Shown here piece by piece: positions 2,173 through 21,435 of a stretch of 40,176 bases of DNA. A program made the position numbers and the translations under genes. A model generated the notes under the pieces. The model ran no database searches, was not told the DNA's origin, and worked only from the letters and a program-made list of their open reading frames with translations. The stretch is from a virus, in the IMG/VR virus record IMGVR_UViG_3300028189_000548, positions 1 to 40,176 of that record; one strand, 5' to 3'. Positions within the stretch are counted from its first letter, which is position 1; the number at the start of each line of letters is the position of its first letter.

Positions 2173-2382
2173 TTATTCTATCACATCCATTATTCTGGAT
2201 TCTTTTGCTGATTTTACTTCAAATGAAAATGGTGAATCTTTTAACCACTCATGTGCTTTGGTTTCTGCGATACTTACTGAATCACATTCTACCAAATAAT
2301 TCCTACGGACTTTCTTTTCTTTTGATCCGTTTTTTGTTTGTATTTCTTCTATAAAAACTACCTGTACTTCGTAATAACTCAT
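2173..2382 (-). CDS. Small hypothetical protein (DUF4494-like appearance)
   Basis: 69-aa ORF with SD; K-K-V-x-x-x-Y-L-V-x-x-x-S-x-x-x-A-E pattern recalled from DUF4494 proteins. Confidence 0.5.
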   Translation of the reverse strand: MSYYEVQVVFIEEIQTKNGSKEKKVRRNYLVECDSVSIAETKAHEWLKDSPFSFEVKSAKESRIMDVIE

Positions 2383-2397
2383 TTTTGTAACTCCTGT

Positions 2398-3126
2398 TTA
2401 TTTTATTATATTTAATATATTAATCATTGTTGCCATAAAATTTATTTCTCTATCCACGATGTTTTTTTCTCTAAACTGACCTTCAGCCAGTTCTAATATA
2501 CATTCCGCGACATGACCACTCGCCCATGAATCCAGTTCATCAAATAGTAATCTGAACATATCAGCAAATTCTGTAACTTGGGTGTCTGCTAATAATTGTC
2601 GTATATTCTTAAATGCGCTCTTCTTATCTTGTGACTTTAGTATTTCTAATAATTTTAATTTGTAATCATTTTCAACCATACTACGTTTATCAACAGTCAA
2701 TTTACCATTTATAGATTGCTGTTGGACTGAATTGATTATTCGTCTAATGTCTGGATACCCACTATTAACGTTCAATACTATGTCCTCTACGTTGTATTCT
2801 ATTTCTTCCTTATCCAATATACCCTTTATATGTACTGCAATTTCTTTTTTGGATGGTGGAATTATCTGAAATGTTTGACATCTACTTTGGATTGGATCAA
2901 TTATTCGTTCTACATAATTACAGGTTAGAATAAACCGAGAATGTTTACTGAACGTTTCCATTAGATTTCGTAGTGCTGCTTGACCTTGTGGGGTGACGAA
3001 ATCACAATTATGTGTAAGTGTTTCTGTTTTACCTATTACGAAATTATGATTACCGTCAACTGACAAGTCATACACGTGCTGGGTGTCTTTTAATTTTTTT
3101 ATAGATTTAATCTTTATCTTGTTCAC
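2398..3126 (-). CDS. Clamp loader (RFC small subunit/gp44-like) C-fragment with 40-aa split-intein IntC (3007-3126)
   Basis: Starts MNKIKIKSIKKL...VYDLSVDGNHNF...THN (blocks F/G), then Cys+1 in CDFVTPQGQAALR; contains FILTCNY and the SRC motif of RFC-type clamp loaders. Confidence 0.92.
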   Translation of the reverse strand: MNKIKIKSIKKLKDTQHVYDLSVDGNHNFVIGKTETLTHNCDFVTPQGQAALRNLMETFSKHSRFILTCNYVERIIDPIQSRCQTFQIIPPSKKEIAVHIKGILDKEEIEYNVEDIVLNVNSGYPDIRRIINSVQQQSINGKLTVDKRSMVENDYKLKLLEILKSQDKKSAFKNIRQLLADTQVTEFADMFRLLFDELDSWASGHVAECILELAEGQFREKNIVDREINFMATMINILNIIK

Positions 3127-4000
3127 TATAACCTATTCCCACATACATTTTATTTAATTGTATTTTGTTATTATCAATAAATATTTCTGAATTTATATAA
3201 TCCATAATATTATTTTCATTTATCCACTTGAATTTATATCCACTCACATCACAATGTTTTATTAAGCTGTCTATTTTTTTTGTTTGTTTTAAGAAAAAAC
3301 TTCTTGGTTTTATTTCATACAATATCTTTGTATCTTTATCGTAAAAATCACCCATATAAACTCTACCATTATCCGTTTTTTTAGTTCTACATTCCTTACT
3401 TTCATATTCTAAATGTTGATTACTATACCAAAAACAAGCTTCCCACGAACTCCTAAACTTTTTAACTTTACCATTAACTTCTATTATAGCATCCCAATGT
3501 GTAAATGTATTTGTTATTGGTGGTGTAAATTCACCATTGGAAATCTTTTCTCTCATCAACTTTGAGTTTAATTTTGCATTTCTTTTTATATTAGCCTTAC
3601 CCTTTTCAGTCTGGTTAAACTCTTTCATCTTTTTAGAATTGTGTTTTCCAAGTTGTGTATAAAATTGTTTAGCTTCATCCGATTGTAACCATTTTTTCTT
3701 TGTATGTTGTATCTTTTTAGCAATTTTTATATTATCTCGTTTTCGCATCCATACTCTATTACCGACACACTGATTACAATATTTTCCATTATTTTTTGTA
3801 TGAAATCTAGAATCACAATGTTCACATTCTTTCAACCTACCTATTTTTTTACATTCATAACATAACAATTGATTCGACGCTTTAGCTACATAATCTTTAC
3901 CACAACTGTCACAAATCTTATCATAATAATGAACTCCACCAAGGCCATTTCTATTTGCGGCATCTCTTAACTTTTGCCTTGTAGATTTTTTTATACTCAT
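3107..4000 (-). CDS. Free-standing putative homing endonuclease (CxxC zinc fingers plus PD-(D/E)xK/TnsA-like nuclease domain)
   Basis: Lies between the two clamp-loader halves; four CxxC motifs; C-terminal RSSWE...DFY...YEIKP; own SD (GGAG). Confidence 0.75.
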   Translation of the reverse strand: MSIKKSTRQKLRDAANRNGLGGVHYYDKICDSCGKDYVAKASNQLLCYECKKIGRLKECEHCDSRFHTKNNGKYCNQCVGNRVWMRKRDNIKIAKKIQHTKKKWLQSDEAKQFYTQLGKHNSKKMKEFNQTEKGKANIKRNAKLNSKLMREKISNGEFTPPITNTFTHWDAIIEVNGKVKKFRSSWEACFWYSNQHLEYESKECRTKKTDNGRVYMGDFYDKDTKILYEIKPRSFFLKQTKKIDSLIKHCDVSGYKFKWINENNIMDYINSEIFIDNNKIQLNKMYVGIGYSEQDKD

Positions 4001-4021
4001 TTAACATCTCCATTGTTCATA

Positions 4022-4029
4022 TATAAATA
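4022..4029 (-). promoter_or_regulatory. TATTTATA box (candidate phage promoter) upstream of the clamp-loader endonuclease
   Basis: Same coding-strand motif at 8254-8261 and 15831-15838 and a variant at 21472-21479, each shortly upstream of a start codon. Confidence 0.4.
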
Positions 4030-4064
4030 TAACCAACTTGTGTTTTTCGAGTAAAAAAATCTAA

Positions 4065-4697
4065 CTATGGTGATAAAATATGATTATAGTTATCCAACTG
4101 ATTTGTTTTAACTACAATTGGATTACCATTTTTATCTTCGACGTACCATTTATGATCTTCAGTGCAAACAACTACTTCACCATTTTCAAGTTCAATCTCA
4201 TACACCTCTTGTTCACCCTTATCCCACAAGTGGAATGGTCTCCACTGCCATTCTTCTTTTTCAACATTCCAAGATTTAACTAAATCATTGTTTTCATCAA
4301 CATCTTTTATCGGAACTTGAATCTGTTCCCCATTCGATAATACAGTAACTAATGTATTTTCATCCAAACACTCATCAAGTACGACCACCTTTAAATCTTT
4401 AAATCCAATAGTTGATACGAATCCTTTTATTTTATTTCTAACAGAATCTACACTATTTTCATCACTCGCATTTATGTAAATATAGTCACATTCAATACTA
4501 TTTGAGAGTATTTTTGCGAGAGTTGTCTTACCGGTTCCAGCTGGACCAAATAATAGTAAGTGTGGGATGTCTCCACTTTCCAAATAAACCCTTACCTTTT
4601 CCTTTAGGTGGTCGTTTCCTATGTAAGTGTCTAATGATGTTGGCCTGTATTTCTCAACAAAAAGAGTATGTTCAGAATTTTGTTTGTTTTGTAACAT
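4065..4697 (-). CDS. Clamp loader N-fragment with 101-aa split-intein IntN (4065-4370)
   Basis: LFVEKYRP, Walker A GPAGTGKTT, INASDE, Walker B VVVLDE followed by CLDENTLV (block A) and CTEDHKW (block B TxxH). Confidence 0.92.
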   Translation of the reverse strand: MLQNKQNSEHTLFVEKYRPTSLDTYIGNDHLKEKVRVYLESGDIPHLLLFGPAGTGKTTLAKILSNSIECDYIYINASDENSVDSVRNKIKGFVSTIGFKDLKVVVLDECLDENTLVTVLSNGEQIQVPIKDVDENNDLVKSWNVEKEEWQWRPFHLWDKGEQEVYEIELENGEVVVCTEDHKWYVEDKNGNPIVVKTNQLDNYNHILSP

Positions 4698-9092: not shown

Positions 9093-10009
9093 TTAAAAAA
9101 ATCTTTCTATACTTTGTGCTTCATCTACTGGTTTACCCCAATCTAAACATTCATAAAATAGATTGAGTTTTTTAGTGAGTGCTCTATCATAGATTTTATC
9201 ATAATCCATATTATCTTCTATGAATTTCATAATCTCGGGTGGATCTTCATAACCTTTATATGCTACTACTGATAATCCTAATGAGTTATTCTTTAAATAT
9301 ACCCACCGGATTTTATCCCCATTACTTATAAATCCATATTTTTTATCTCGTTTGTAATATCGCAATAAATCATTATAACTTACTGCTGCCCTTACATGGA
9401 CTGGAATACCGTTCTTCAATACTGTAAATACTGAAGTATTTTCTTTGTCCTTTTTAATATATTTCTTAATTCCCTTTACACCGGTTGGAGAAGAAATATC
9501 ATCTAAATCTTTTAATCTCATGTTCTTCTTAAATCTGGTTATTCTATGGTCTATCTTATCCCGTGGAACACTTGCTAAAATGTCCTCTAATACATCGTTT
9601 AATAGTTTTCTAAATGCCGGTGCGAAATTACTACGTACAGTATCTAATCCCTTTACCATTGTCTTATTTACTTGAACTCCATTATCACTAATGAGTTTCA
9701 TACCATATCGTTTCTTTGTAATGAATAAACCAGACTTTGCTATAATTTCCTGTTTGATTTCAAATCGGTGTGTGTCTAAGTTACAGAATTTCTTAGCGAA
9801 ATAGTCGTATGAACCATTTAAGTATTCTTGAACTTCAGTTGCAATTTCATTTATTCGTTGAGTCATCATTACATCACTCAGGCTTTGACCTTTGAAACGG
9901 TGGTTAATGAGGTCTACAACTGATAAAAATATAGAATCAGTCAAGTGTCGACGTAGATAATTCTATCAACATCGAGATCTGGCTGCCTCCTTATTTGTTT
10001 TATTTTCAT
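9093..10009 (-). CDS. Family B DNA polymerase C-fragment, interrupted by a 5-nt insertion (9939-9943) in motif C
   Basis: ATG at 10009 gives MKIKQIRRQPDLDVDRIIYVDT-TGA; the -1 frame continues TDSIFLS...KKRY...KGLDTVRS. Removing 5 nt gives a 303-aa ORF with an intact YVDTDS. Confidence 0.85.
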
Positions 10010-10479
10010 ATTATAATTTTCCTTATATGTTCTAAAACGGTTTCTTTACTCAAATTCCAATCATTTTCCCAAATTATTATTGGGATATATCCATTATCTT
10101 CATAAAAATTTATTTTAATTTCATCATACTCCCAAATTTCATTGGCAACTTTACCCCCTCTAATAGTATGAGTCTCATTATATAACTGCGGATTCATGTG
10201 CCAATAATCACCAAAAAATTCTATAATATAATTTTCATATTTACCATCTGCCACATAACACCCAATTCGAACTTCTGGTTGGATCTCAATATTAAGTTCA
10301 CGTTCTATTTCCTTCATTACAGAAATAGATAATTTTGATTTTGAATTAAATTTAACACGTTTACTTTCAGCCTCTATTTCTGTATATCCATTATGTAACC
10401 AATACTCAATTTTAGTTGTATTATAAAGTAAATTCCAAATTTTTCTTCTATTATCATCTGTATAATCTAACTCAAAAAA
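10006..10479 (-). CDS. Vsr/DUF559-like endonuclease between the PolB halves
   Basis: IIEFFGDYWH and IIIWENDW are Vsr-like motifs. The frame is open from 10479 but the first ATG is at 10317; stop overlaps the PolB-C ATG (ATGA). Confidence 0.8.
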   Translation of the reverse strand, partial: FFELDYTDDNRRKIWNLLYNTTKIEYWLHNGYTEIEAESKRVKFNSKSKLSISVMKEIERELNIEIQPEVRIGCYVADGKYENYIIEFFGDYWHMNPQLYNETHTIRGGKVANEIWEYDEIKINFYEDNGYIPIIIWENDWNLSKETVLEHIRKIII

Positions 10480-12227
10480 TCATCGGTTTCCAGTAAATCT
10501 TTTACTTTTATTTCCATTTTTTTACCATTTCGTATTACATCAACTCTATTGTTTTCATATAACTTTCTAACTTCACCGTTTTCTAATTCAACTTCAACTG
10601 GAGTACCAATCTCACTATTATAAAAATGATTTGTTATTTTTGCAGTAAACTTAATTAATTCTTGCCCTGCCGTTGTAACTGAGGTTGCATTTTCTAAATC
10701 GTAAAATCTCCAACCCTGAAGTCCAAGAACACCGTACATACTATTAAGTAAAATTTTCTGAATATATTGTCGTCTGTTAAAGTATTCATATTTTTCGTCA
10801 TTTCCGTCGTCTGCAAATTTCTTAGCTAATTTCCTAAACTCTGATCTTGTATCAAACCACTTGGATAAAATAGTTGGTATTAAACCTGCTTTGTCTGTTT
10901 TATATAATATACCAGCACTTGAAATAGATATTTGATTATCATTAAAAAAGTCCTCTAATTCTGTATTTGTTAGTTGGCCCTTCTTCTTTCCATTTAATAT
11001 GATAGAATGTGTCTTTTTTTTCTTTGATATAAATTCTTTAGCATTCCAACCAACTACCCTTCCAAACTTAGTTTCTGGGCTGATATTCAAACTCATTATT
11101 AAATTTGGGTACATACTTGTCAGATCCAAATCTATAACCCAGTCATGTTTACCACGTTGTGGACTTTTTACGTATGCTCCTACGAACTTATTATCTGTAT
11201 ATTCACCCTTTTCTGGTTTGTTTGGTGCTACGATGTTTAATTTTTTCAAATGAGTGAGGATTGCCCCTTCTAAATATCTACTACTGAAATATATGTCCTC
11301 ATATGGAACATGACCGATATGACAAATACCACGGGCAATATCAATGAAATCTAATTTATCATCCAACTGTTTTACTATTCTAACATCATGAATGTTATAT
11401 TCCACAAACTTTCTCAAGTCGTTTTCAAATAAATCGTTTAGTGTTCCATCGTAACTTATTTTTGGTGATCCAACTTCAAATTGACCAATGGCATCTAATC
11501 TATATGATGGTCTTGACCCAAATGTAAAATCCTTATAGAGTAGTAAGTAATCTAATACACTTACACCTGCTATTTTATATCGTTTCGTGTATTTACTATA
11601 CATCACCTTTGATATTGGTGATAGATTGTCAGCAACACTTTGACCGAGAACTTTAATTGTTCTGTTGTATAAATATGGAATATCAAACCCATCTACGTTC
11701 CAACCTGTAATAATAGTTGGTCGTAGCTCTAAATACTTTTGGTAAAATCTTTGTAATAATTCATACTCTGTTTGGTGACTCTCAACTACGACATTCTTTC
11801 CAAATCCTGTTGTGTCTAGTGTCTTATGTTCGTCTAATGCTAAGCACGTATAAACATTACTGATGTTATCCCACATTGCAATAGATGTGATTTTATTTGG
11901 ACCAATCATTGGGTCTGGAAAGCCCTCTGTTACTTCACACTCAATGTCAAATATGAATATTTTATGTCCAGTAGATGGTTCTTCACTTTGACCGTACATA
12001 TCTATTAATGTCCGCATTTCAGGATTTACATCACTTTCAAATAATCCTTCTGCAGTCTTATCCCATCTGTATATCTTCTTTAATTTATCACCGTATAAGG
12101 ATGCAAAAGTTCCATAGTTGTCTCTAACATAAGCATACTTTTTGTATTGTGTTGAAACATATCCGGCTTTGTCGTCCCAAATGTGGACCTTTCCCTTGAA
12201 TGGTTCTACGAATATATTTTGGTAAAT
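10467..12227 (-). CDS. Family B DNA polymerase N-fragment (exonuclease, motif A, motif B) with intein-like tail; probable ATT start
   Basis: ExoI FDIEC, ExoII WNVDGFDIPY, ExoIII YNIHD, motif A DLTSMYP, motif B KILLNSMYG. The frame is open for 70 codons upstream of the listed ATG (12017), to ATT at 12227 with GAGG 7 nt upstream. Confidence 0.9.
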   Translation of the reverse strand: MYQNIFVEPFKGKVHIWDDKAGYVSTQYKKYAYVRDNYGTFASLYGDKLKKIYRWDKTAEGLFESDVNPEMRTLIDMYGQSEEPSTGHKIFIFDIECEVTEGFPDPMIGPNKITSIAMWDNISNVYTCLALDEHKTLDTTGFGKNVVVESHQTEYELLQRFYQKYLELRPTIITGWNVDGFDIPYLYNRTIKVLGQSVADNLSPISKVMYSKYTKRYKIAGVSVLDYLLLYKDFTFGSRPSYRLDAIGQFEVGSPKISYDGTLNDLFENDLRKFVEYNIHDVRIVKQLDDKLDFIDIARGICHIGHVPYEDIYFSSRYLEGAILTHLKKLNIVAPNKPEKGEYTDNKFVGAYVKSPQRGKHDWVIDLDLTSMYPNLIMSLNISPETKFGRVVGWNAKEFISKKKKTHSIILNGKKKGQLTNTELEDFFNDNQISISSAGILYKTDKAGLIPTILSKWFDTRSEFRKLAKKFADDGNDEKYEYFNRRQYIQKILLNSMYGVLGLQGWRFYDLENATSVTTAGQELIKFTAKITNHFYNSEIGTPVEVELENGEVRKLYENNRVDVIRNGKKMEIKVKDLLETDDFLS

Positions 12228-12303
12228 CTTATAACCTCTTTTGTTTAATTGGTATTATACTGTAATAATCTTGATGTGAATATACGACGGAAAATCGTAA
12301 AAG

Positions 12304-13680
12304 TCAAGAATATTCTTGGTCGTCATTATCACCCGTACCGTAAATTATTTCACATCCAGATGAATCACAGAATTTTTCCACGTCAGCTTCTTCACCCTCG
12401 ATACCAACAAAACTCAACTTGCCTAGTTTTTTCACCATTTTATTATATGTCTTTTCGTCAATGGCTTCGTATGGCATTTGTCGGTATGCACCGAGTTCGT
12501 GGCGTGGTAATAACGATATTCCCTTTAATCTGTATTGGAAATAATTTAAAACTTGTGGTAATTCGGCAGACTCGGTTTCTGGATTAAATGTCGCCGTACA
12601 ACTCACTTGGTTGTCTGCCCAATGTCGTTGTAGGAATGCGGCTAAATTGAATTGTTCCCATATAGATAAATCACCTACAGTTCTAATTCCCTCACCTACA
12701 TCAACTGGAACCTCTACTACCATTGTACTATCTTCTGACCCGAATGCTGGTTCTAAATGATAGTTTGCCTTTTTTAATGGTTCGATCAATTCCGATTGTT
12801 TGGATAATCTCATCCGTCTTATATAAAACCTACTTTCTGGATAATGCATTCCGGGTGTTGCTCCTACTAACAAAGACACCGTCCCACTCGGTTTTATTGA
12901 GCTCAACTTTATACTTCTCGGTACTGCTAACCAATCTGAATACATTTTATCCCATTTTGTAAGTTCGTCGTATCCCTCTTCACACCACAGTTTTAATGTG
13001 TTTAATCCATTATTAGTAATAAATTGAGCTATACCACTCATAGATGTACCAATTCGTCTGTTGCGTAACATTACTCTATTAGTTTCTGGCCAATGAGTTT
13101 TTCCTAAAGTAACTGTTTTTGCATATAAGTATGCATACTTTAATGTCTTTTTATAATCTTCTAAGTCATCGTGGTGGTGTGGAAATGTCTCTACGAGACA
13201 ACATAGCTCGTAGCTTTCGAGTGATTGTTCCAGACAGGGATTTCCGCCTGCAACTCTGTGGTCTTTGTTATCGCCACCATTTTTCATACGAGAATATTCT
13301 CTCATATTTTCTAACCATGCAATTCCGGGTTCACCATTATCTACTATTCGTTTACATATATCAGTATAATCCATTCCGATTTCTGCAAATACTGAATTAT
13401 TAGATGTCCAACCAAATTGTTCCCGTTCTGGGTTCTTTTTGTAATTCTTTAAGTCTAAGTATTCTTCATCTGTAGCATCACCGAATACAATTTCTGCTGT
13501 ATTATGTGATACTATTGTCTCATCTACTCCATTTTCAGGATTTTTAACAAAGAAATGATGTTTATCTTCAACTTCTATGTCCCAAGTTTTTTCAACTTTA
13601 CCTTCATCAACTATATCCATAATAGTAACGAGTTCAAAATCTTCTAAATTAAAATCTTCTATTCCGTATTTTTCTATCAT
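12304..13680 (-). CDS. nrdJ: Class II (B12-dependent, monomeric RTPR-type) ribonucleotide reductase C-fragment with 60-aa IntC (13501-13680)
   Basis: TWDIEVEDKHHFF...SHN then Thr+1 (TAEI); GGNPCLEQ catalytic finger loop, CCLVE, IKPSGTVS. Confidence 0.92.
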   Translation of the reverse strand: MIEKYGIEDFNLEDFELVTIMDIVDEGKVEKTWDIEVEDKHHFFVKNPENGVDETIVSHNTAEIVFGDATDEEYLDLKNYKKNPEREQFGWTSNNSVFAEIGMDYTDICKRIVDNGEPGIAWLENMREYSRMKNGGDNKDHRVAGGNPCLEQSLESYELCCLVETFPHHHDDLEDYKKTLKYAYLYAKTVTLGKTHWPETNRVMLRNRRIGTSMSGIAQFITNNGLNTLKLWCEEGYDELTKWDKMYSDWLAVPRSIKLSSIKPSGTVSLLVGATPGMHYPESRFYIRRMRLSKQSELIEPLKKANYHLEPAFGSEDSTMVVEVPVDVGEGIRTVGDLSIWEQFNLAAFLQRHWADNQVSCTATFNPETESAELPQVLNYFQYRLKGISLLPRHELGAYRQMPYEAIDEKTYNKMVKKLGKLSFVGIEGEEADVEKFCDSSGCEIIYGTGDNDDQEYS

Positions 13681-13688
13681 GTTATCTC

Positions 13689-14639
13689 CTAATAAACGTC
13701 CAGCTTAAAATCAAATCCAAGTGATTTTGTTGCTTCAAATTTTAAATTATTTTTTTCCTTATCGAACTCAAGTGTATATGTGCCTTTCGTTTCAATAATT
13801 AAATTATCACCGGGTATATAAAAATCTGGATAGTATCGTCTTTTTTTACCTTCATAGTTATACCAAATCTCTGGCATATCACTCTTTTTGTATAAAATAT
13901 CATTTTCACTATATCCAGACTGAAATAAATTATCTAACGTTTTATTTTCGTATCCTTGAATTCTAATTCGTTTTCCGGATGGCATAGTATAAAATTTATT
14001 TGTATTATAATACCCACTATATCCGTCTAATGCCTTTTCTGCAAATTCTGGGTGATGCATTGGATTTTCTACACCATATAATTCTACCATCCTATCTCTA
14101 AATTCTTTAGTTCCAAATTTAAAATAATCTTCTCTACCATACTTTTCAATTATTGTTTGTTTAGCTTTCCTTTTAAACTCATCTGTCTGTGTGTAATAAT
14201 CAACACCGTATTCACTATTTATAAAATCCATTCTAATTTTTTTATATTCATTAGAATTTACATACGCAGTTGCTCCATATTTTTTTAAATTAGTTTTCAT
14301 TGTTCTATCTTTAACTTCGGGGATTTGTTGTGCATTGTCTACACCATATCTTCTTTGGAAAGTTTTTATTTTTTTATCAGTTATTTCCGTTTCATTACGC
14401 TTTTCTTGTATTTTTTTGATGGAAGTTGGAAATTGCCATGCGTTTTCATACCCATATTTTTCTTTCATTATTTTAGCTTGATGATTGTATCTCATTTTCT
14501 TTGCTTTATCACTCCAAGTGCATTTTTTATCACAGTAGAATAATCCACTTTCAATCCGTATCCTATAATCTCTATTCTTTTTTGTTTCATATTCTGTTCC
14601 ACAAATAATACAATTAACTTTTACAATTTCAAGTGCCAT
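13689..14639 (-). CDS. Free-standing putative homing endonuclease (EKYG repeats plus PD-(D/E)xK domain)
   Basis: Lies between the nrdJ halves; about 6 (E/K/R)-x-YG-x-x-N/Y repeats; QGYE...YYPDFYIP...IIETKG nuclease motif; own SD. Confidence 0.78.
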   Translation of the reverse strand: MALEIVKVNCIICGTEYETKKNRDYRIRIESGLFYCDKKCTWSDKAKKMRYNHQAKIMKEKYGYENAWQFPTSIKKIQEKRNETEITDKKIKTFQRRYGVDNAQQIPEVKDRTMKTNLKKYGATAYVNSNEYKKIRMDFINSEYGVDYYTQTDEFKRKAKQTIIEKYGREDYFKFGTKEFRDRMVELYGVENPMHHPEFAEKALDGYSGYYNTNKFYTMPSGKRIRIQGYENKTLDNLFQSGYSENDILYKKSDMPEIWYNYEGKKRRYYPDFYIPGDNLIIETKGTYTLEFDKEKNNLKFEATKSLGFDFKLDVY

Positions 14640-14701
14640 TTTTTATCTCCTATATTCAATAATAACTATAAGAAAAGATAAAAAACATACATTTCCCGAC
14701 A

Positions 14702-15796
14702 CTATTTTTTCTGTTTTACGAGAAAATCTTTATCTTTATCTATATCTTTAACCATCTTCCATTCAAACCCATTATCTTGATTATAAACTAATAAAGTATG
14801 TTTTTCCGTCGCCTCATATTCAGTCCCATTTAAAGTTTTAATTTTTAGGACTTTTTGTTCGCCACTATCAAATGTATTTAAGACTTGTTTATAGCCATCA
14901 GCAGTTAAAACTTTATCATTTCTCGTTATTTCTTCCATCTTCTTAAATCCATCTTCAGTAAGAACTTCATACCATTTAGGTAAGCACCTGCGAACATTGC
15001 CGGCCACTACACACTTTCCAATCAAATTCATAATATCTACGATTGTGGTAACGGTTATTGGTTCACCTGTATTCTTTTCTAATACTTCACTTACGGTGTC
15101 ATGGACTTCTTCTAATGGTGTATATCCACTCGCCACACCACCAAAACCTTTTATTGGTTCACCTAGACCTCTAATGAGTGAATAATCAAATTTCATCGGG
15201 GCTGTTCCGTGAAAATATGATTCCAATAATAATTCTAAACTCTCTACCCAACCTTCTCGTGTATCTGGTATTTGAAATGTTTCTTCGTTTCTATCTCTAT
15301 TTATTCCCTTTATTATAATTTCACCAGCACCCTTTACATCAAACCCCACGCCGACACCCAACATTGAGGCATCCATTAAAAATGTGAATGGTTTGGAGTA
15401 ATCTTGTTTTAGTGTGGAAGTGGAGACGAATGCACAGTTGTTTAGGGCGGCATATAACTTCTTTTCTTCTGTGATAGCAGTTCCCATTGCCCATAAACCT
15501 CTGCCTGGTGGTAGAAATTTCATACTCCACATTCTCTCATACATTTCTTGAGCGGAGTTTTGAGCTTGCCATGGATTCCAACCTAATTGATGTTGTTCAA
15601 TCCATTCCTTTTGCATATTATATGTACCCTCTACAACCCGTTGAATGGTTTCCCACCACCTTTCATTTTTTCCATTTTCCTTGATACGGGAATAGGTTCG
15701 CATATACACTAACAGTCCCAATCCATTAAAGCCAAATGGTGGCTTTTTTCTCTTGTATCCGTTTATAAAATTTTCCGTTAAAACGAATTTATCCAT
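14702..15796 (-). CDS. nrdJ: Class II ribonucleotide reductase N-fragment with 94-aa IntN (14702-14986)
   Basis: RTYSR, FLPPGRGLW, ALNNC, GVGVGFD, VVAGNVRR followed by CLPKWYEV (block A) and ATEKH (block B). Confidence 0.92.
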   Translation of the reverse strand: MDKFVLTENFINGYKRKKPPFGFNGLGLLVYMRTYSRIKENGKNERWWETIQRVVEGTYNMQKEWIEQHQLGWNPWQAQNSAQEMYERMWSMKFLPPGRGLWAMGTAITEEKKLYAALNNCAFVSTSTLKQDYSKPFTFLMDASMLGVGVGFDVKGAGEIIIKGINRDRNEETFQIPDTREGWVESLELLLESYFHGTAPMKFDYSLIRGLGEPIKGFGGVASGYTPLEEVHDTVSEVLEKNTGEPITVTTIVDIMNLIGKCVVAGNVRRCLPKWYEVLTEDGFKKMEEITRNDKVLTADGYKQVLNTFDSGEQKVLKIKTLNGTEYEATEKHTLLVYNQDNGFEWKMVKDIDKDKDFLVKQKK

Positions 15797-15830
15797 AACA
15801 TTCCTCCATAATTTCTCTATCCATAACTAT

Positions 15831-15838
15831 TATAAATA
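15831..15838 (-). promoter_or_regulatory. TATTTATA box upstream of nrdJ
   Basis: Intergenic, about 35 nt before the ATG at 15796. Confidence 0.4.
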
Positions 15839-15845
15839 GTAATAT

Positions 15846-16319
15846 TTATTCAAATCCACCCATGTCTTTGTCAGAATTATACTTATTTGCTAATTGTTTA
15901 CGTAGATATTCTTCACTATTATCCATTTTCTTTTGAGTTGTTTGACCATCTTGTGTATTTGCTTCAAAAATTTTAATACTACCATTATTTGTATTTATAC
16001 TAGCTGGAAATGTAATTCCATCAACACCGAATCTGTTTTTAATAACATGGAAACGGCCTGTATTGGCTATCTTATCTTCTACTTTTCTACTCATGGATAT
16101 AACAAAATCGGCAATCATAACTTTTGCATATGATTCGGCTACTTTACTTGCATCGATGACATCTTCTTCTAATGATGAATTATGTGAATATATACCATTA
16201 GCAAAAAACATATGTGTATCTTCAACTGTAATATCAACAGTATCTTCTTCCCCTACCAATTCAATAGAAACAATTTCATCCATTACAAAATCTTCTGGAT
16301 TTATGTTATGCATTTTCAT
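15846..16319 (-). CDS. DnaB/gp41-like helicase C-fragment with 47-aa IntC (16179-16319)
   Basis: DEIVSIELVGEEDTVDITV...FFANGIYSHN then Ser+1 (SSLEED); AESYAK, KNRFG arginine finger. Confidence 0.92.
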   Translation of the reverse strand: MKMHNINPEDFVMDEIVSIELVGEEDTVDITVEDTHMFFANGIYSHNSSLEEDVIDASKVAESYAKVMIADFVISMSRKVEDKIANTGRFHVIKNRFGVDGITFPASINTNNGSIKIFEANTQDGQTTQKKMDNSEEYLRKQLANKYNSDKDMGGFE

Positions 16320-16569
16320 TTACAAATTCCTTACATTTTTTAACTATATATTTTTCATCCATCTTATAGAAAACATCATCTACTCGTAAAATTTTATACC
16401 CCTTACTTTCTAAAATAATATCTCGTTGAATATCAAGATTTCCATCGTGCCAATATTCACAATCAAATTCAATTATTGAATTTCCACACTTGAAATCTGG
16501 CATTATAATTTTATTTGGATAATCATTTTCGTGATTTACAAAAAGTTTCTTTATTTCTTTGTAAATAAT
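16306..16569 (-). CDS. Short Vsr/DUF559-like endonuclease between the helicase halves
   Basis: PDF...IIEFDCEYWH...D-x-x-R-D-x-x-L-x-x-x-G-Y-K-I-L-R; frame open from ATT at 16569, first ATG at 16503. Confidence 0.72.
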   Translation of the reverse strand: MIYKEIKKLFVNHENDYPNKIIMPDFKCGNSIIEFDCEYWHDGNLDIQRDIILESKGYKILRVDDVFYKMDEKYIVKKCKEFVNENA

Positions 16570-18425
16570 TTATCACCCACTTTTAATCCAGTTGCAACTG
16601 ATTTTAATTTACCATACATAACAGGTAAATCGTGATTAGCTGAAATAGTTATCTCTTTACCTGATTTCAATTTAACTTTATATACTGGTTGTTTTTCAAC
16701 TGGAAAAACTTTATTAACTTTTTTATATCCAAGATGAGTTAGAATTTCATCACCTTCTTTTATTTTTCCAATTTCTATTTCGCCATTTTCAGTTTCTACT
16801 TTATCAGTTAAAATATGACACCTATTCGCTTGACTTGCGGTCCAGATGGGGAAGTCGTATTCTCCTGCAAGACCTCTTAAATCTTCATAAATACTTTCTA
16901 ATACGTGTCGTTTTTCTGTTCCAACACCACGGAGAATATCTGCGTAATCTACTAATACCAAATCTATATTTGTTCCCTGTAATTCTATTTGTTTCAAATG
17001 GGATGAAAGTGTCTGGACTGTTGCACCCTTTGTTGGGAAGTATTTAATTAGTAGAGTTCCCTTTAATTCTGCAATTTTCTTCTTGACATCATCTTTATAG
17101 TATTTTATATTAGCCGTAGTCACTCCACTAAATACTGTATCAAATCGTAACCCCACGTAATTTTGATTTAATTCTAACGTATAATATACTACATTTAATC
17201 CATTCTTTACTGCTGATGCTCCTATTGCTTGTAAAGTCCAACTGTTATGTGATAAAATACCATTACCATAAAAACAATGAATGTCCTCTACTGATATATC
17301 ATATAAAATGGTTTCTGGCATTTCGTTAAACTTTAATACAGACATATATCCGGTGGTAGACACAATTTTATCACCAACCTTTAAATCTCGAACCTTTACC
17401 CAGTCACCGTCATATAATTTAAGTCTGTGATCCCAACTACAACGTAAAGATCTATTGTGAGATTTAAAATAAACTCTAACATTTTTTAGGAACTCAGTTC
17501 GTTGTAATGTTATAATATTTTTATATGCGTCCGGTGTTTTAATTAATATTTCAAATGGCAATTCATATTCTACATTTTGAACTTCTGGTATTCCTATTTT
17601 AGAAAATAAAGTTTTTAAGTTTATGGTTTCTAATACTTGTTTTTTAATAAATCCATCATTATCAAAAAATTTCCAAGCTGATGTCAATTTCTCTAAACCA
17701 TATGAATCAATTAATTTTATCTTATCCCATGGATCATACCATTCAGTATCACCATTTTCAATTAACTTTCCAAGTTTAAAAAATGCAATGTCAATTTTAG
17801 TACACCCACCAACACATTTTCCAATTCCGGCTGGGGCTACTACTACTCCTAATTCACCCGATCCTAAACCACCATCCATTATTTCATCTATGGTTTCCCA
17901 ACCAGTTTTTACGGTGTCTCTAGCAGAGTTAGCAAGTCGCTCTTCTATACCATCAATGTATTCATGTCCTAATTCTCTGTCACCACCAGCCTTCATTGCG
18001 TCATCTATGAGTTGCTTTATCTCATCATATTTACCGATTTCTAATAAATCAACACTATCCATTATTGCTGCTTTAATAACTTGATTTTTACAGAACTCTA
18101 ATGTCTGTTCTTGTATAAATGGTAAATCAGTTGATTCTATATATCTCCAACTTTCTTTTAGATTTTCTACCACGGACATCTTTAGAATGTCGTTTTCTAT
18201 ATCGTCTATTTTTACCTTTAATACTTCTAATGTAGGACCAGTTTTATACTCAAAGAAATAATCTCGTATTGTTTTTGCTAAAAACTTATTCGCATCAGAG
18301 TCGAAGTATGATGGTTCTAATATATCTGATATTGTTTGGAGGAACTTTTTATCACCAAGTAGTGATGATATTATTTTACATTGAAATGTTTTACCAAACT
18401 GTTGTAAAGTTGAGTGTTCACTCAT
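16551..18425 (-). CDS. DnaB/gp41-like helicase N-fragment with a cis mini-intein and an 89-aa split IntN (16551-16820)
   Basis: Walker A APAGIGK|S, YYTLEL, VLVDYADI (Walker B), WTASQANR followed by CHILTD (block A) and SANH (block B). Confidence 0.92.
   Translation of the reverse strand: MSEHSTLQQFGKTFQCKIISSLLGDKKFLQTISDILEPSYFDSDANKFLAKTIRDYFFEYKTGPTLEVLKVKIDDIENDILKMSVVENLKESWRYIESTDLPFIQEQTLEFCKNQVIKAAIMDSVDLLEIGKYDEIKQLIDDAMKAGGDRELGHEYIDGIEERLANSARDTVKTGWETIDEIMDGGLGSGELGVVVAPAGIGKCVGGCTKIDIAFFKLGKLIENGDTEWYDPWDKIKLIDSYGLEKLTSAWKFFDNDGFIKKQVLETINLKTLFSKIGIPEVQNVEYELPFEILIKTPDAYKNIITLQRTEFLKNVRVYFKSHNRSLRCSWDHRLKLYDGDWVKVRDLKVGDKIVSTTGYMSVLKFNEMPETILYDISVEDIHCFYGNGILSHNSWTLQAIGASAVKNGLNVVYYTLELNQNYVGLRFDTVFSGVTTANIKYYKDDVKKKIAELKGTLLIKYFPTKGATVQTLSSHLKQIELQGTNIDLVLVDYADILRGVGTEKRHVLESIYEDLRGLAGEYDFPIWTASQANRCHILTDKVETENGEIEIGKIKEGDEILTHLGYKKVNKVFPVEKQPVYKVKLKSGKEITISANHDLPVMYGKLKSVATGLKVGDKLFTKK
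17244..17816 (-). mobile_element. 191-aa cis mini-intein in the helicase P-loop (GK|S)
   Basis: Starts CVGGCTKI, block B CSWDH, ends YDISVEDIHCFYGNGILSHN, Ser+1; no LAGLIDADG motif seen. Confidence 0.88.
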
Positions 18426-18459
18426 TTATTTTTTTCTCTATAATGTATGTTTGTTTTAT

Positions 18460-18469
18460 AATATATATC
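18460..18469 (-). promoter_or_regulatory. GATATATAT box upstream of the helicase
   Basis: The same core recurs in intergenic DNA at 9067-9075, 24961-24969, 25256-25263 and 30327-30335. Confidence 0.35.
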
Positions 18470-18498
18470 CATGGAAATAATCAAAACCAATGATTTTA

Positions 18499-19257
18499 TT
18501 ACCAGAAATTCTGATGTTGATTTCTATTTTTATCAATGACACCAAACTTGAATAATTTTTCTGTCGTAGCATGGGTATTTGTTGTATTCATTGAATTCGT
18601 GATATTCTTTTCCCAAATGCAACCAAAATCATCTGGGGCATTATATTCAGAAATAAATACATCATGTCCAATGTTAGTCATTTCTCTACACCATTGCCAA
18701 AAATTATCATGATCAAAGTTTTTAGAAGTCAAATACTGTTTTGTATTTTTATATGGTGGATCACAATATATTATACTATTATCTGGAATATTCATAACAT
18801 TGTAATTACCATCTACAAATTTAATATCTCGTATTTTATCAATTTGGGATTCTACATTCCGTATTTGTTCATTAATATAATTACGTCCAGTCTTTCCAGC
18901 CGAATGTCCACTGTATCCACCATCAAAAAATCTACCATTATAAGAAGCCATCCAACCAATCCAACCAATCATAAAATCATCAAATTCTATATTAGTGTTG
19001 TTATTAAATTCAACCCGTGCCTTTGAATATAATTCTTTACTAATAGTATTTGGTCGTTTTTTATTATCACAAAGACCTTTCCACATGGAAATTAAATATT
19101 TATTTTTATCGGAAGCCAATCTTTTACCACCGGCTTTATCTATAGTATTCAATCCACCACAAAAAGGTTCAACATACCATTGATTATCGGTTCTGTTTTT
19201 TAAAATGATAGGAAGTATATACTTTGCTATCCTATTTTTACTGCCCATATATTTCAT
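18499..19257 (-). CDS. DNA adenine methyltransferase (D12/Dam-like)
   Basis: MKYMGSK, YVEPFCGG, YCDPPY, FISEY. Confidence 0.9.
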   Translation of the reverse strand: MKYMGSKNRIAKYILPIILKNRTDNQWYVEPFCGGLNTIDKAGGKRLASDKNKYLISMWKGLCDNKKRPNTISKELYSKARVEFNNNTNIEFDDFMIGWIGWMASYNGRFFDGGYSGHSAGKTGRNYINEQIRNVESQIDKIRDIKFVDGNYNVMNIPDNSIIYCDPPYKNTKQYLTSKNFDHDNFWQWCREMTNIGHDVFISEYNAPDDFGCIWEKNITNSMNTTNTHATTEKLFKFGVIDKNRNQHQNFW

Positions 19258-20820
19258 TAAAAATATTCGTGTTCTACTAAATTATGAGGATTTTTTGCAT
19301 TCTCGATTCTAGCTTCCATTATTTTAAAATACTCTTTTTCTCTTTCGATAAGTATGTAGTTCCTTTCTGAAAACACACAAGCAATTCCTGTTGTTCCACT
19401 TCCTGAAAATGGATCTAATACCACATCACCTTTACGACTACCCAATGTAACTAAATAACTCATTAAGGTTACGGGTTTTACTGTTGGATGAATATTATTT
19501 TCCAATCCACTATTCTTTTCAGATTTACTCGCCTTTGGAACAATTAAAAATGGAAATGTCCGTTGTATTTCTTCTGGTAATTTCTTAACCCTATCTTCCC
19601 ACCAAGCATCTAAACTATAATATCTACTAAAATCTTTTTCTAATATATCATCACTTATTAATAGGTTTGCTGCAAATCTACCGAGTGGTGATGCTTCTGC
19701 TGTATCATTATTCTCTGACTTAAATCCACTTGTCTTAAATACATTATCGTCTGCTCGTGGTTGTCGTTTAGTGGTTTTTGGTTTTTGATAAGTTTCACTC
19801 GGGTTTAATTGTTTCATATCACCACTAAGAAATGTCTTTCCACCTTCATTTACTTTACCGATTGTTTTTGCACCACCGAATGACTGTTGTTTTTCTACAT
19901 ATTTATCGTAATCACTTTTAGATTTTCGTGATGGTTGATTTCCCCTTGATAATCCTTCTGCGTCAGTATCAAAGTTTTTCTGACTACCTACATTATCCTT
20001 ATTGTATTGTTCTAAATCTTTACTAACAGGTTTCTTAAATCCATAATTATATGTTCCACCATATTCTTTAGCATATACCGAACCTTCTTCTATGGAACTT
20101 CTTTCTGTAAATCCTTTTCTATCACTTTCATATTGTTCTGTATCACTCATTCCTGCAAATGGTATTCTACAATTATCCAACCAAGTGATCCCTTTTTGAT
20201 TATCAAGTGCTTGGTCTAAATAACCTTTCTTCTCTAATGGTTTCATTGCCACAATCACGACTTCTACTGCTGGTTTTGGTTGATATCCTGCATAACTTCC
20301 ATCAAGTTTCTTGGCTTCGTCTGACTTTGGTTCTGTTATATAACTTTCAACTCTTGGTCTATTACTTACAGTTTCACCACTCCAACCATCTTGACCTGTG
20401 TTTTCATCTCGGCGGATATCCGCATAAGTTCCTTTCTTTTTACCAATTACTTTCCGTTCCTTACCTAATCTTTTATCAACTGCCTTACCAATATTCATAG
20501 CCTTTGGAAAACCTGTAGCGTATGTCCAATAGATAGGTGAGAAACCAATTTGAAATCCAACTTCCTCTAACATTTGAACCATTCTGTATTGAACGTCACT
20601 TCTTGGAGCACTCATTACGAATGCAAATCCACCTGGTTTCAATACTCTCAATGACTCTTCAAATATCTCTTTAGGTGGCAACGTCTTATCCCAATCTTTA
20701 CCCATAAATCCATAGCTTAATTCAACCATACGGTGGATCTGTACATAACAAATCTACCGTATGATCGGCAATCTCCTTTAATTTTTCTATACTATCTCCA
20801 AGTAATAATTTACTTTCCAT
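19257..20820 (-). CDS. N4/N6 (beta-class) DNA methyltransferase interrupted by a 10-nt insertion (20715-20724) after DPPYG
   Basis: ATG at 20820 gives MESKLLLGDSIEKL...CTDPPYG-TGA; the +1 frame continues YGFMGKDWD...RVLKPGG...HPTVKP...VLDPFSGSGTT. Removing 10 nt gives a 517-aa ORF. Confidence 0.85.
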
Positions 20821-21435
20821 AATATTCATGTCCCCCTGGAACTTTGACTTTTTCCAATTATCATTTTCCATCATTTTTTTGATGGATTTTTTACTCATTA
20901 TTCTCCAACCATCCATATTGAAAGTTTTTATCACTTCTCCCAATAATTTCATCTGGTCTATACTAAATGCATGACCACGAGTTCTATTACATAACTCACA
21001 ACACACAACACAATTTTCTTTAATATGCCCTACATTATTATCTATTCTATCAAGTCCAAGAGTTTCTCTTTCACCACTTCCACAATAATAACACATTAAA
21101 TCATTTTCCATAATCTCACACATTTCATCAAATGTAAAATCTACTTCATCTCTTTGCCTATAACTGTTATATTTCCGTTTCCATATGTGTTTATATTTTG
21201 ACCAACCAGTACCTTCTCTCATCGGTGCAGTTAATCCTAATGATTGACCTTTATTTCTACATTCAACACTACAGAACTTTTTCCCATCGGCATGAGATGG
21301 ATATACTTTACTTACTTTACCACATAATTTGCACTCTACTTCTACTCTACTATCTTTCCCTTTATTCCACCCAGATCCCTTTTTTAGATTTTCCCAACTT
21401 GAGTTATATGTCTTTCTTTTATCTTCATTTCCCAT
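20722..21435 (-). CDS. His-Me/HNH-type endonuclease fused in frame to the methyltransferase N-terminal 32 aa
   Basis: CYYCG...GLDRIDN..GH...NCVVCCELCN motif; N-terminal CxxC...CSxxC zinc finger. Confidence 0.8.
   Translation of the reverse strand: MGNEDKRKTYNSSWENLKKGSGWNKGKDSRVEVECKLCGKVSKVYPSHADGKKFCSVECRNKGQSLGLTAPMREGTGWSKYKHIWKRKYNSYRQRDEVDFTFDEMCEIMENDLMCYYCGSGERETLGLDRIDNNVGHIKENCVVCCELCNRTRGHAFSIDQMKLLGEVIKTFNMDGWRIMSKKSIKKMMENDNWKKSKFQGDMNIMESKLLLGDSIEKLKEIADHTVDLLCTDPPYG

Follow-up and report, generated by a model that had tools for sequence, protein, structure and literature searches.

Candidate short translational bypass elements at catalytic motifs of the DNA polymerase and methylase genes of an uncultured marine T4-like phage

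Two interrupted genes in a phage replication module

The window analyzed here is a 40,176-nucleotide (nt) viral contig (IMG/VR record IMGVR_UViG_3300028189_000548, positions 1 to 40,176) with a G+C content of about 32% and all of its genes on the minus strand. Its gene content is that of the replication module of an uncultured marine T4-like phage: a gp43-type family-B DNA polymerase (PolB), pieces of a ribonucleotide reductase (RNR), a DnaB-like helicase with intein signatures, a 5'-3' exonuclease and two methylases. This study concerns PolB and one of the methylases, each of which is interrupted within a catalytic motif by a micro-insert (hereafter gap) that opens with a stop codon; we propose that both gaps are probably programmed elements of short translational bypass, or 'stop-hops'. 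A search of cultured-phage DNA with the window recovered no close relative, and the closest polymerase from an isolate is that of Microcystis phage Mel-JY01, at 47% to the window PolB.

The polymerase locus, in the order of transcription, comprises the following features, among them a Shine-Dalgarno (SD)-like motif:

10467..12017, minus strand: PolB N-fragment, 516 amino acids (aa), with the exonuclease domain and motifs A and B (Pfam PF03104, PF00136)
10601-10470, minus strand: added C-terminal tail of the N-fragment, its last 44 codons, PVEVELENGEVRKL...DDFLS, absent from unsplit PolB and kept in all split relatives
10006..10479, minus strand: putative endonuclease open reading frame (ORF) between the PolB halves, with a Vsr-like motif (E-x6-YWH) and no ATG before 10317
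9944..10009, minus strand: leader (N-terminal extension) of the PolB C-fragment, ATG at 10009, 22 codons MKIKQIRRQPDLDVDRIIYVDT ending in YVDT
9992-9986, minus strand: SD-like AAGGAGG inside the leader
9948..9975, minus strand: 5' hairpin predicted by RNAfold, its 3' arm formed by the I-Y-V-D codons and ending 1 nt before the take-off codon
9946-9944, minus strand: take-off codon ACT, with the stop TGA (9943-9941) directly after it
9943-9939, minus strand: 5-nt gap TGACT, with the landing triplet ACT at 9941-9939; decoding would resume at GAT (9938-9936)
9093..9938, minus strand: body of the PolB C-fragment, DSIFLS... to its stop (Pfam PF00136), in a frame that differs from the leader's

About 79 unsplit PolB relatives are contiguous at the position of the gap, where they read ...DYCIYIDTDSVF... 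(IYIDTDS); thus, in the window PolB five additional nt, TGACT, separate the T of motif C from the second D. Deleting TGACT in silico yields YVDT-DSIF..., i.e., it restores the family-B motif C, and an intact YxDTDS is obtained from the window gene only if the gap is skipped.

The methylase locus is laid out similarly around its own gap:

20830..21435, minus strand: putative HNH/endonuclease VII-type nuclease gene directly upstream of the methylase (PHROG matches at about 1e-9)
20722-21435, minus strand: the HNH open frame including the methylase N-terminus, with which it is in frame
20725..20820, minus strand: N-terminal 32 codons of the methylase, from the ATG at 20820 and ending in DPPYG
20778-20773, minus strand: SD-like AAGGAG 5' of the hairpin
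20767-20723, minus strand: 45-nt hairpin predicted by RNAfold, -25.4 kcal/mol
20727-20725, minus strand: take-off codon GGT, with the stop TGA (20724-20722) directly after it
20724-20715, minus strand: 10-nt gap TGAATTAAGC, with the near-cognate landing triplet AGC at 20717-20715; decoding would resume at TAT (20714-20712)
19257..20714, minus strand: methylase body YGFMGKDWDK..., an N6/N4 methylase (Pfam PF01555 and alignment with relatives)

Deletion of TGAATTAAGC gives DPPYG-YGFMGKDWDK, which matches about 55 distinct uninterrupted relatives; here too, an intact DPPY(G) is obtained only if the gap is skipped. As the window HNH ORF is in frame with the methylase N-terminus, a hop would additionally yield an HNH-methylase fusion. 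At a related locus, L102 (positions 1934-2908; L-numbers are labels of relative loci, mostly metagenome contigs), a 1-nt difference shifts the HNH frame, which stops at a TAA over the methylase start.

Recurrence and variation of the gaps

Both interruptions had been picked out in a first-pass annotation, made from the letters of the window, as TGA-first inserts lying 22 and 32 codons after a start and downstream of endonuclease ORFs. They are real: both recur in independent assemblies, and a survey of PolB motif C and the methylase DPPY motif finds gaps again in relatives of both genes. Nine PolB variant types from independent assemblies, with C-fragments ranging from 96% down to about 52% identity to that of the window, are all broken exactly at DT|DS. 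Their gaps are all 5 or 7 nt long and all open with a stop directly after a Thr codon, with TGA, TAA and TAG each in use:

PolB, window and L171: take-off ACT, gap TGACT
PolB, L001 and L170: take-off ACC, gap TGACT
PolB, L186: take-off ACG, gap TAACT
PolB, L188: take-off ACT, gap TAACT
PolB, L172: take-off ACA, gap TGACC
PolB, L173: take-off ACG, gap TGATG
PolB, L175: take-off ACG, gap TAGTTCG
PolB, L312: take-off ACG, gap TAGTGCG

The landing triplet is itself a Thr codon (ACT or ACC) in six of the nine variant types, and in the rest it matches the take-off codon at two of its three bases. Among the methylases, gaps of 8, 9, 10 and 13 nt follow DPPYG in at least six backgrounds, again with the stop first in every variant and with a Gly codon as the landing triplet in most of them (L168, L102, L229, L266, L302):

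Methylase, 8-nt gap (L168, L229, L266, L302): GGT TGAAT, landing GGA, GGC or GGT
Methylase, 10-nt gap (window, L101, L167, L223, L267): landing AGC
Methylase, 13-nt gap (L102): landing GGC, with a TAA in the target frame within the gap
Methylase, 9-nt gap (L163): in frame

These series support the earlier notion of a family of recoding elements and show it to be conserved, with a range wider than the 5-10 nt then envisaged (5-7 nt in PolB, 8-13 nt in the methylases). The observation that TGA follows a U-ending codon holds for both window genes (ACU and GGU) but is no conserved feature, since PolB relatives also use ACC, ACA and ACG.

Several observations accompany this survey. L163 (positions 1059-1100; IMGVR_UViG_3300019768_000207) represents another methylase family (DPPYG..TTACKWD) directly 3' of a classical HNH gene; its in-frame 9-nt TGAATTAGC follows DPPYG, its hairpin is weaker (-10.6 kcal/mol), and its gap could be an in-frame stop-hop or a site of stop readthrough. 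In L193 (positions 1-60) the 13-nt TGAATAAATTGGC of L102 is seen again after CCCCCGTATGGT at the start of a 1.1-kb contig, where the downstream sequence differs. L229, L266 and L302, which come from JGI and NCBI metagenome contigs, are GC-richer methylases of the form ICDPPYG-LEFMGKEW with GGT TGAAT GGY. On the 77-kb contig IMGVR_UViG_3300009370_001552 (L155/L170) the PolB gap is present and the methylase motif, DPPYS, is intact; the methylase match there spans 2.1 kb for 490 aa, which suggests that it contains a further insertion (an intein or a nuclease gene). A metagenome search with the methylase pattern returned 120 matches, mostly by chance, with only about eight methylases among them, and the matches of an IMG/VR scan with the leader pattern were mostly unrelated AT-rich DNA.

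Recurrence of this kind bears directly on whether the gaps are sequencing or assembly artefacts, or a recent inactivating mutation in one contig. Ordinary frameshift and N-gap artefacts do occur in related contigs, and four candidate interrupted PolB calls were set aside as such: L185 has a deletion, L187 and L189 have homopolymer frameshifts downstream of motif C, and L313 has a run of Ns. However, those errors sit in homopolymers or elsewhere, whereas the gaps are 5-13 nt long and lie outside homopolymers; the C-fragment gene call is identical on 85 contigs, across which the PolB gap is likewise identical, and gaps are found in many further independent assemblies and diverged lineages. An artefact is thus refuted, with practically no probability left to it, and from the comparative evidence we judge that the micro-inserts are neither errors nor pseudogenes. 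As a picture of the background noise, L187 (positions 300-330) and L189 (positions 2950-2965), on unrelated contigs, carry a 1-nt frameshift at the same A-rich run (VPLVKKRYP), probably a homopolymer assembly error in each. Two further candidates were rejected: a sense reading of TGA, which fails since the gap lengths are not divisible by three, and an intein or group I intron, which is ruled out by size, stops and frames.

The variants also weigh on ordinary programmed +1 or -1 frameshifting at the stop, which would leave two to three extra residues in the motif (YVDT-LT-DS in PolB, DPPYG-ELS-YGF in the methylase). The target frame is open across both window gaps, and an A-site stop together with an upstream SD-like element are classic stimulators of +1 shifts, as in prfB (PMC5009743). 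However, a slippery site is absent; L102 has a TAA in the target frame, the L163 gap is in frame, and L168, L229, L266 and L302 would need a +2 shift. Further, the residues that would be inserted in PolB are unconserved (LT, VT, MT, VM, SS) and would come between two catalytic aspartates. As the required frame change is +1, +2 or 0, the variants cannot all be served by one kind of frameshift; by contrast, every one of them yields the canonical protein if the ribosome hops to the triplet that precedes the resume codon. We accordingly hold frameshifting to be decidedly unlikely.

Purifying selection on both flanks and a gap-free homologue

Purifying selection acts on both flanks of the PolB gap. 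By Nei-Gojobori estimates across the split PolB relatives, the ratio of nonsynonymous to synonymous substitution (omega) is about 0.1-0.4 in the leader, about 0.1-0.3 in the 24 codons that follow the gap and precede any ATG (where the synonymous divergence, dS, which reaches 0.7-2, is measurable), and 0.03-0.2 in the rest of the C-fragment. A complementary observation comes from L310 (positions 2247-3909; JGI Ga0118721_1008455). Its PolB is split, its nuclease gene (254 aa) is intact, and the added tails and a hairpin of -20.6 kcal/mol are present, yet leader-YGDT-DS... forms one uninterrupted, gap-free ORF of 302 aa. As its leader continues in frame into DS..., L310 is a contiguous homologue of the predicted joined PolB product.

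These data are pertinent to the notion that the genes encode multi-piece enzymes, with real termination at the stop, coupled re-initiation (at a stop-overlapping NTG in PolB and at the FMGK ATG in the methylase) and non-covalent assembly of the pieces. PolB is already a two-piece protein here, engineered split PolB can work (PMC3061061), classical stop/start overlaps are seen in some PolB variants (TTGA in the window, ATGA in L172, TGATG in L173) and the FMGK ATG lies 13-26 nt after every methylase gap. Against this, L001 (CTG), L186 (GTA), L188 (TTA), L175 and L312 offer no usable start; indeed, no start codon is conserved at the PolB gap (TTG, CTG, ATG, GTA, TTA or none), which argues against re-initiation. 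Moreover, such a break would separate the two catalytic Asp residues of DTD, or strand DPPY on a 32-aa peptide, and it does not account for why the landing codons match, why each variant has its stop right behind the motif codon or why L310 encodes a contiguous protein. A further point against it is the purifying selection on the 24 codons that separate the gap from the first ATG. On balance, a multi-piece arrangement appears unlikely, although we retain a small chance for it.

A predicted, covarying hairpin 5' of the stop codon

In both window genes RNAfold predicts a two-tier hairpin, with an outer stem, a 1-nt interruption and an inner stem, immediately 5' of the stop. It supplants the fold drawn by eye in the first-pass annotation, which had a 5-nt bulge with the UGA inside the structure and was not reproduced; the caveat there about weak, G-U-rich stems does not apply to the hairpin that replaces it. 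In every interrupted allele the codons of the motif itself form the 3' arm, which terminates at the take-off or the stop codon, while the 5' arm comes from the cassette to which the gap belongs (see below): PolB leader codons, e.g., N-V-N-M-D-H, and D-H/C-T-V or S-S-V-G-G in the methylases.

We compared folding energies over the 48 nt ending at the stop between the interrupted alleles and 55 uninterrupted alleles of each gene. Interrupted methylases (n=7) fold at -19.6 to -29.7 kcal/mol, whereas their uninterrupted counterparts lie at -6.5 +/- 3.0 and never go below -13.9 kcal/mol; interrupted PolB alleles (n=8) fold at -11.5 to -19.2 kcal/mol, compared with -3.9 +/- 1.6 and a lowest value of -7.8 kcal/mol. 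There is no overlap in either gene. The hairpin is clear only with such stop-anchored windows, the unanchored 76-nt windows of relatives giving fold z-scores near 0. The AT-rich and the GC-richer methylase groups differ in register and sequence and have equal hairpin architecture; in L229, L266 and L302 the solution is an independent one, in which CCC CCC (Pro-Pro) pairs with GGG GGG (Gly-Gly). Across the methylase and PolB, three unrelated sequence solutions arrive at one architecture.

Covariation, which the earlier annotation had proposed to look for in its own fold, was found in this hairpin 5' of the stop. Between 90% and 98% of the cells are paired (90% in PolB), as against 14-52% when the partner is slid. 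Double-sided compensatory changes affect three pairs in PolB and, among the methylases, one pair of group A and two of group B; a further three compensated pairs, in a row, are seen in the L310 hairpin. For PolB the covariation score amounts to 0.237, compared with 0.155 in shuffles, of which none out of 500 reaches 0.237. Further, the G-U pairs in the stems point to RNA rather than DNA.

A second element accompanies the hairpin: an SD-like AAGGAG(G) or GGAGG lies 2-12 nt 5' of it in all eight interrupted methylases, compared with 9% of the uninterrupted ones, and in six of the eight PolB leaders. With respect to a possible nascent-peptide signal upstream of the take-off codon, the N-terminus of the PolB leader, MKIK.IRR, is conserved, but this could instead reflect the protein tail or the SD-like RNA; it has no obvious counterpart in the methylase. 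The gap itself holds no take-off stem-loop, as 5-13 nt is too short to contain one.

The hairpin could instead act at the level of nucleic acid, either by guiding micro-splicing or editing of the mRNA, or as an inverted repeat in DNA (e.g., a nuclease or recombination signal) in genes that are decaying. The persistence of the hairpin in the gap-free L310 indicates a role beyond hopping, and the inverted repeat includes the probable target sequence of the nuclease. However, no process is known that would cut 5-13 nt out of bacterial or phage mRNA, the G-U pairs favor RNA over DNA, decay is excluded by the strong purifying selection and deep conservation, and a stop at the first gap position together with matched codons are features of translation. 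Hence, we consider this explanation very unlikely.

Nuclease genes and the mosaic structure of the cassettes

The putative nuclease ORF between the window PolB halves has its match in phrog_22677, a family with no assigned function (E 2e-12); the match is confined to the C-terminal third of that profile. By inspection the ORF shows the Vsr-type motifs ADG...IIEFFGDYWH; Pfam and PDB sequence searches with the 10479-10006 ORF gave no match. It is probably N-terminally truncated, and is partly of a different type from the nucleases of L001/L170, L312 and L310, which are intact, of one type and 253-277 aa long. In L171 and L172 the PolB nuclease is reduced to a 27-nt remnant, and in L186, L188 and L173 it is absent. 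A U_UUU_UUG heptamer at 10473-10479 (minus strand), at the end of the PolB N-fragment and opening onto the startless nuclease frame, was considered as a -1 shift site for nuclease expression; this is doubtful, and the heptamer is probably coincidental because the same bases encode the conserved tail DDFL in nuclease-free relatives.

The nuclease upstream of the window methylase has a Pfam HNH match of only E 1.4, and a PDB sequence search with it found no match; its activity is uncertain, since the usual DH is DR in its DRIDNN..H..N. Over its C-terminal 83 aa it shares 73% identity with the nuclease that precedes the interrupted L102 methylase. An HNH gene precedes the methylase in the window, L102 and L163, and some other alleles, without HNH, have only a patch of about 70 nt together with the gap.

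Comparison of the flanks reveals a mosaic. L001 and L172 share 50-65% nucleotide identity in the polymerase body and 87-98% over a tract that begins with the tail, takes in the nuclease remnant and the leader and reaches to the gap; within about 10 nt after the gap, identity drops again. Likewise, dS is 0.31 in the leader and 1.46 downstream. In the methylases, the patch of about 70 nt and the gap are common to alleles flanked by three different uninterrupted backgrounds: the L101 methylase resembles L085 upstream and L107 downstream, and L168 resembles L081. These patch-only alleles look like products of 'hit-and-run' gene conversion.

Taken together, the mosaicism indicates that a mobile cassette common to otherwise divergent genes has the gap as its right-hand end and often loses or swaps its nuclease gene. 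The PolB cassette would consist of the C-terminal tail, nuclease gene, leader, hairpin and gap, and that of the methylase of the HNH gene, the patch of about 70 nt and the gap, each spread by endonuclease-driven gene conversion. The first-pass proposal of endonuclease-associated mobile cassettes built like T4 MobA/gene 60 thus stands as to their build: a split gene with tails, a nuclease swapped or lost and a gap retained. The coupling of nuclease and gap is not obligatory, as L310 has the nuclease without the gap, and the link is weakened in that the same PolB gap is flanked by two divergent nuclease types. It is plausible that the gap serves self-immunity, protecting the carrier allele from re-cutting by the cassette nuclease, much as in T4 mobA/gene 60.

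Setting of the two loci

The window contig is unusually rich in selfish elements. The DnaB-like helicase (16551-18425, minus strand) has intein/HINT signatures, and RNR and clamp-loader pieces lie at 12304-15796 and 2398-4697 (both minus strand). A scan of the window for a third frame break with hairpin and stop produced no convincing case.

A proposed mechanism and its standing

We advance the following mechanism. While translating the PolB leader or the N-terminus of the methylase, a ribosome would come to the last sense codon of the motif (ACU, Thr, or GGU, Gly) with the stop in its A site. Instead of termination, the peptidyl-tRNA would unpair, the mRNA would slide by 5 nt (PolB) or 10 nt (methylase), and the tRNA would re-pair with a matching or near-matching triplet (ACU in PolB; AGC in the window methylase and GGN in its relatives), with decoding resuming at the next codon. 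The predicted products are proteins with intact YVDTDS and DPPYGYGFMGK, the PolB junction peptide being ...IIYVDTDSIFLS... When the take-off codon occupies the P site, the mRNA exit channel would hold the 3' arm of the hairpin, whose re-zipping behind the ribosome might pull the mRNA forward, and the folded hairpin would bring the SD-like AAGGAG(G) next to the anti-SD.

Comparative anatomy gives recoding at these sites strong support. We infer such a hop for both genes, and consider it the probable explanation of their gaps, while recognizing the points that tell against it. Some landing triplets are imperfect (AUG in L173, UCG in L175, GCG in L312), and that of the window methylase, AGC, is no Gly codon. 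A +1 shift (DPPYG-ELS-YGF) is sterically possible in the window methylase, and the stop of the window PolB overlaps a TTG (TTGA), an arrangement like that of translational coupling. The hairpin statistics draw on few independent lineages, and because L310 keeps the hairpin without the gap, the hairpin is a cassette feature that may have another role. Most carriers of the gap, moreover, lack a nuclease gene, which complicates the self-immunity reading, and we know of no experimentally characterised precedent for a 5-nt hop driven by a 5' hairpin.

A wider proposal, which we put forward tentatively and at clearly less than an even chance, is that a portable module, made up of an SD-like motif, a hairpin built from the codons of the target motif and a stop with a duplicated codon, slides ribosomes over 5-13 nt without a take-off stem-loop, and is installed by homing-endonuclease cassettes in the most conserved motifs as a device for target-site immunity. 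Short stop-hops might then be a widespread, unannotated mode of phage gene expression.

The implications are severalfold. T4 gene 60 and a single yeast mitochondrial lineage are essentially the only known cases of efficient natural bypassing, and two independent gene families, one of them the phage polymerase, now offer a rich natural mutational series. With its gaps of 5, 7, 8, 9, 10 and 13 nt, its use of all three stops and of several landing codons, its three solutions of the hairpin and a control without a gap, this series makes short-range ribosome sliding and mRNA refolding behind the ribosome directly testable. Such genes are currently annotated as fragments or pseudogenes, a matter of consequence for phage genome annotation. 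The gaps also extend the idea of selfish nucleases imposing recoding on their hosts; if the proposal is true, short stop-hops are widespread in phages and no mere curiosity of T4 gene 60.

Comparison with known systems

The T4 gene 60 bypass is the obvious point of reference; in 2011 Bonocora reportedly placed it within a MobA homing-endonuclease element. The likeness to the present genes extends to several features: (i) a free-standing nuclease gene splits the gene of a DNA enzyme, here PolB, whose halves bear added C- and N-terminal tails; (ii) a few dozen codons of the downstream half precede the gap (22 here, 46 in T4); (iii) the stop comes directly after the take-off codon, and the take-off and landing codons match; (iv) the gap sits in a highly conserved motif, survives loss or swap of the nuclease and involves an SD-like element. 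The history of the MobA element of gene 60 has likewise been described as one of tails, nuclease swap and loss, retained bypass and hit-and-run events (Manning & Atkins, bioRxiv 10.1101/2022.08.31.505936), and a driving role in gene 60 bypassing has been argued for mRNA pairing behind the ribosome (bioRxiv 10.1101/2024.12.09.627546).

Other systems share narrower sets of features. Fractured genes with free-standing Vsr-like homing endonucleases are known from marine phages (Dassa et al. 2009, PMC2677866), where the motifs of the Vsr-like catalytic core are an Asp, a Glu at the Phe62 position and F/Y-W-H, and split gp43 is noted for T4-like phages (Petrov and Karam, as cited in PMC2677866). The PolB locus resembles these in being a marine phage replication gene split by a putative nuclease gene with Vsr-like motifs, with added tails that resemble intein remnants; however, PMC2677866 describes no frame-breaking micro-insert or recoding and does not use the word 'frameshift', and PolB here has no splicing-competent intein.

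On the translational side, synthetic stop-hops in E. coli (Weiss et al. 1987, as reviewed in PMC5009743) similarly have a peptidyl-tRNA crossing a stop to a matched codon a few nt downstream. By that account they were low-efficiency laboratory constructs, whereas the present ones would be natural, conserved, required for the polymerase and equipped with dedicated cis signals. The mitochondrial byps of Magnusiomyces capitatus (Lang 2014, Nosek 2015, via PMC5009743) are also many short mobile inserts skipped in essential genes, and also tolerate imperfect pairs (two of three bases); as portrayed there they differ in being 27-55 nt long, in belonging to mitochondrial translation, where the A site holds an unused codon instead of a stop, and in having no nuclease cassette or 5' hairpin. 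The candidate bypass in the terminase of Streptomyces phage Hau3 (cited in PMC5009743) is likewise a short phage coding gap with an SD-like sequence 5' of it; as sketched in that citation, it depends on a rare UUA codon and is without a nuclease cassette or motif-hairpin. According to that review, from 2016, natural counterparts of short hops were presumed to exist, but examples were lacking (PMC5009743), and full-text literature searches found no description of the PolB or methylase gaps.

Gene 60 differs from the present genes in several respects. The gap is 5-13 nt here as against 50 nt in gene 60, and there is no take-off stem-loop; the conserved structure here is a strong 5' hairpin, whereas the 5' stem-loop of gene 60 is its non-conserved element. 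The host sites are PolB motif C and the methylase DPPY, and the methylase is not split into two genes. The nucleases are Vsr-like/phrog_22677 and HNH/endonuclease VII-like, with no sequence homology to the MobA/gene 60 cassette. Hence, the gaps, as read from their sequences, would work like gene 60 bypassing, yet fall outside the gene 60 family.

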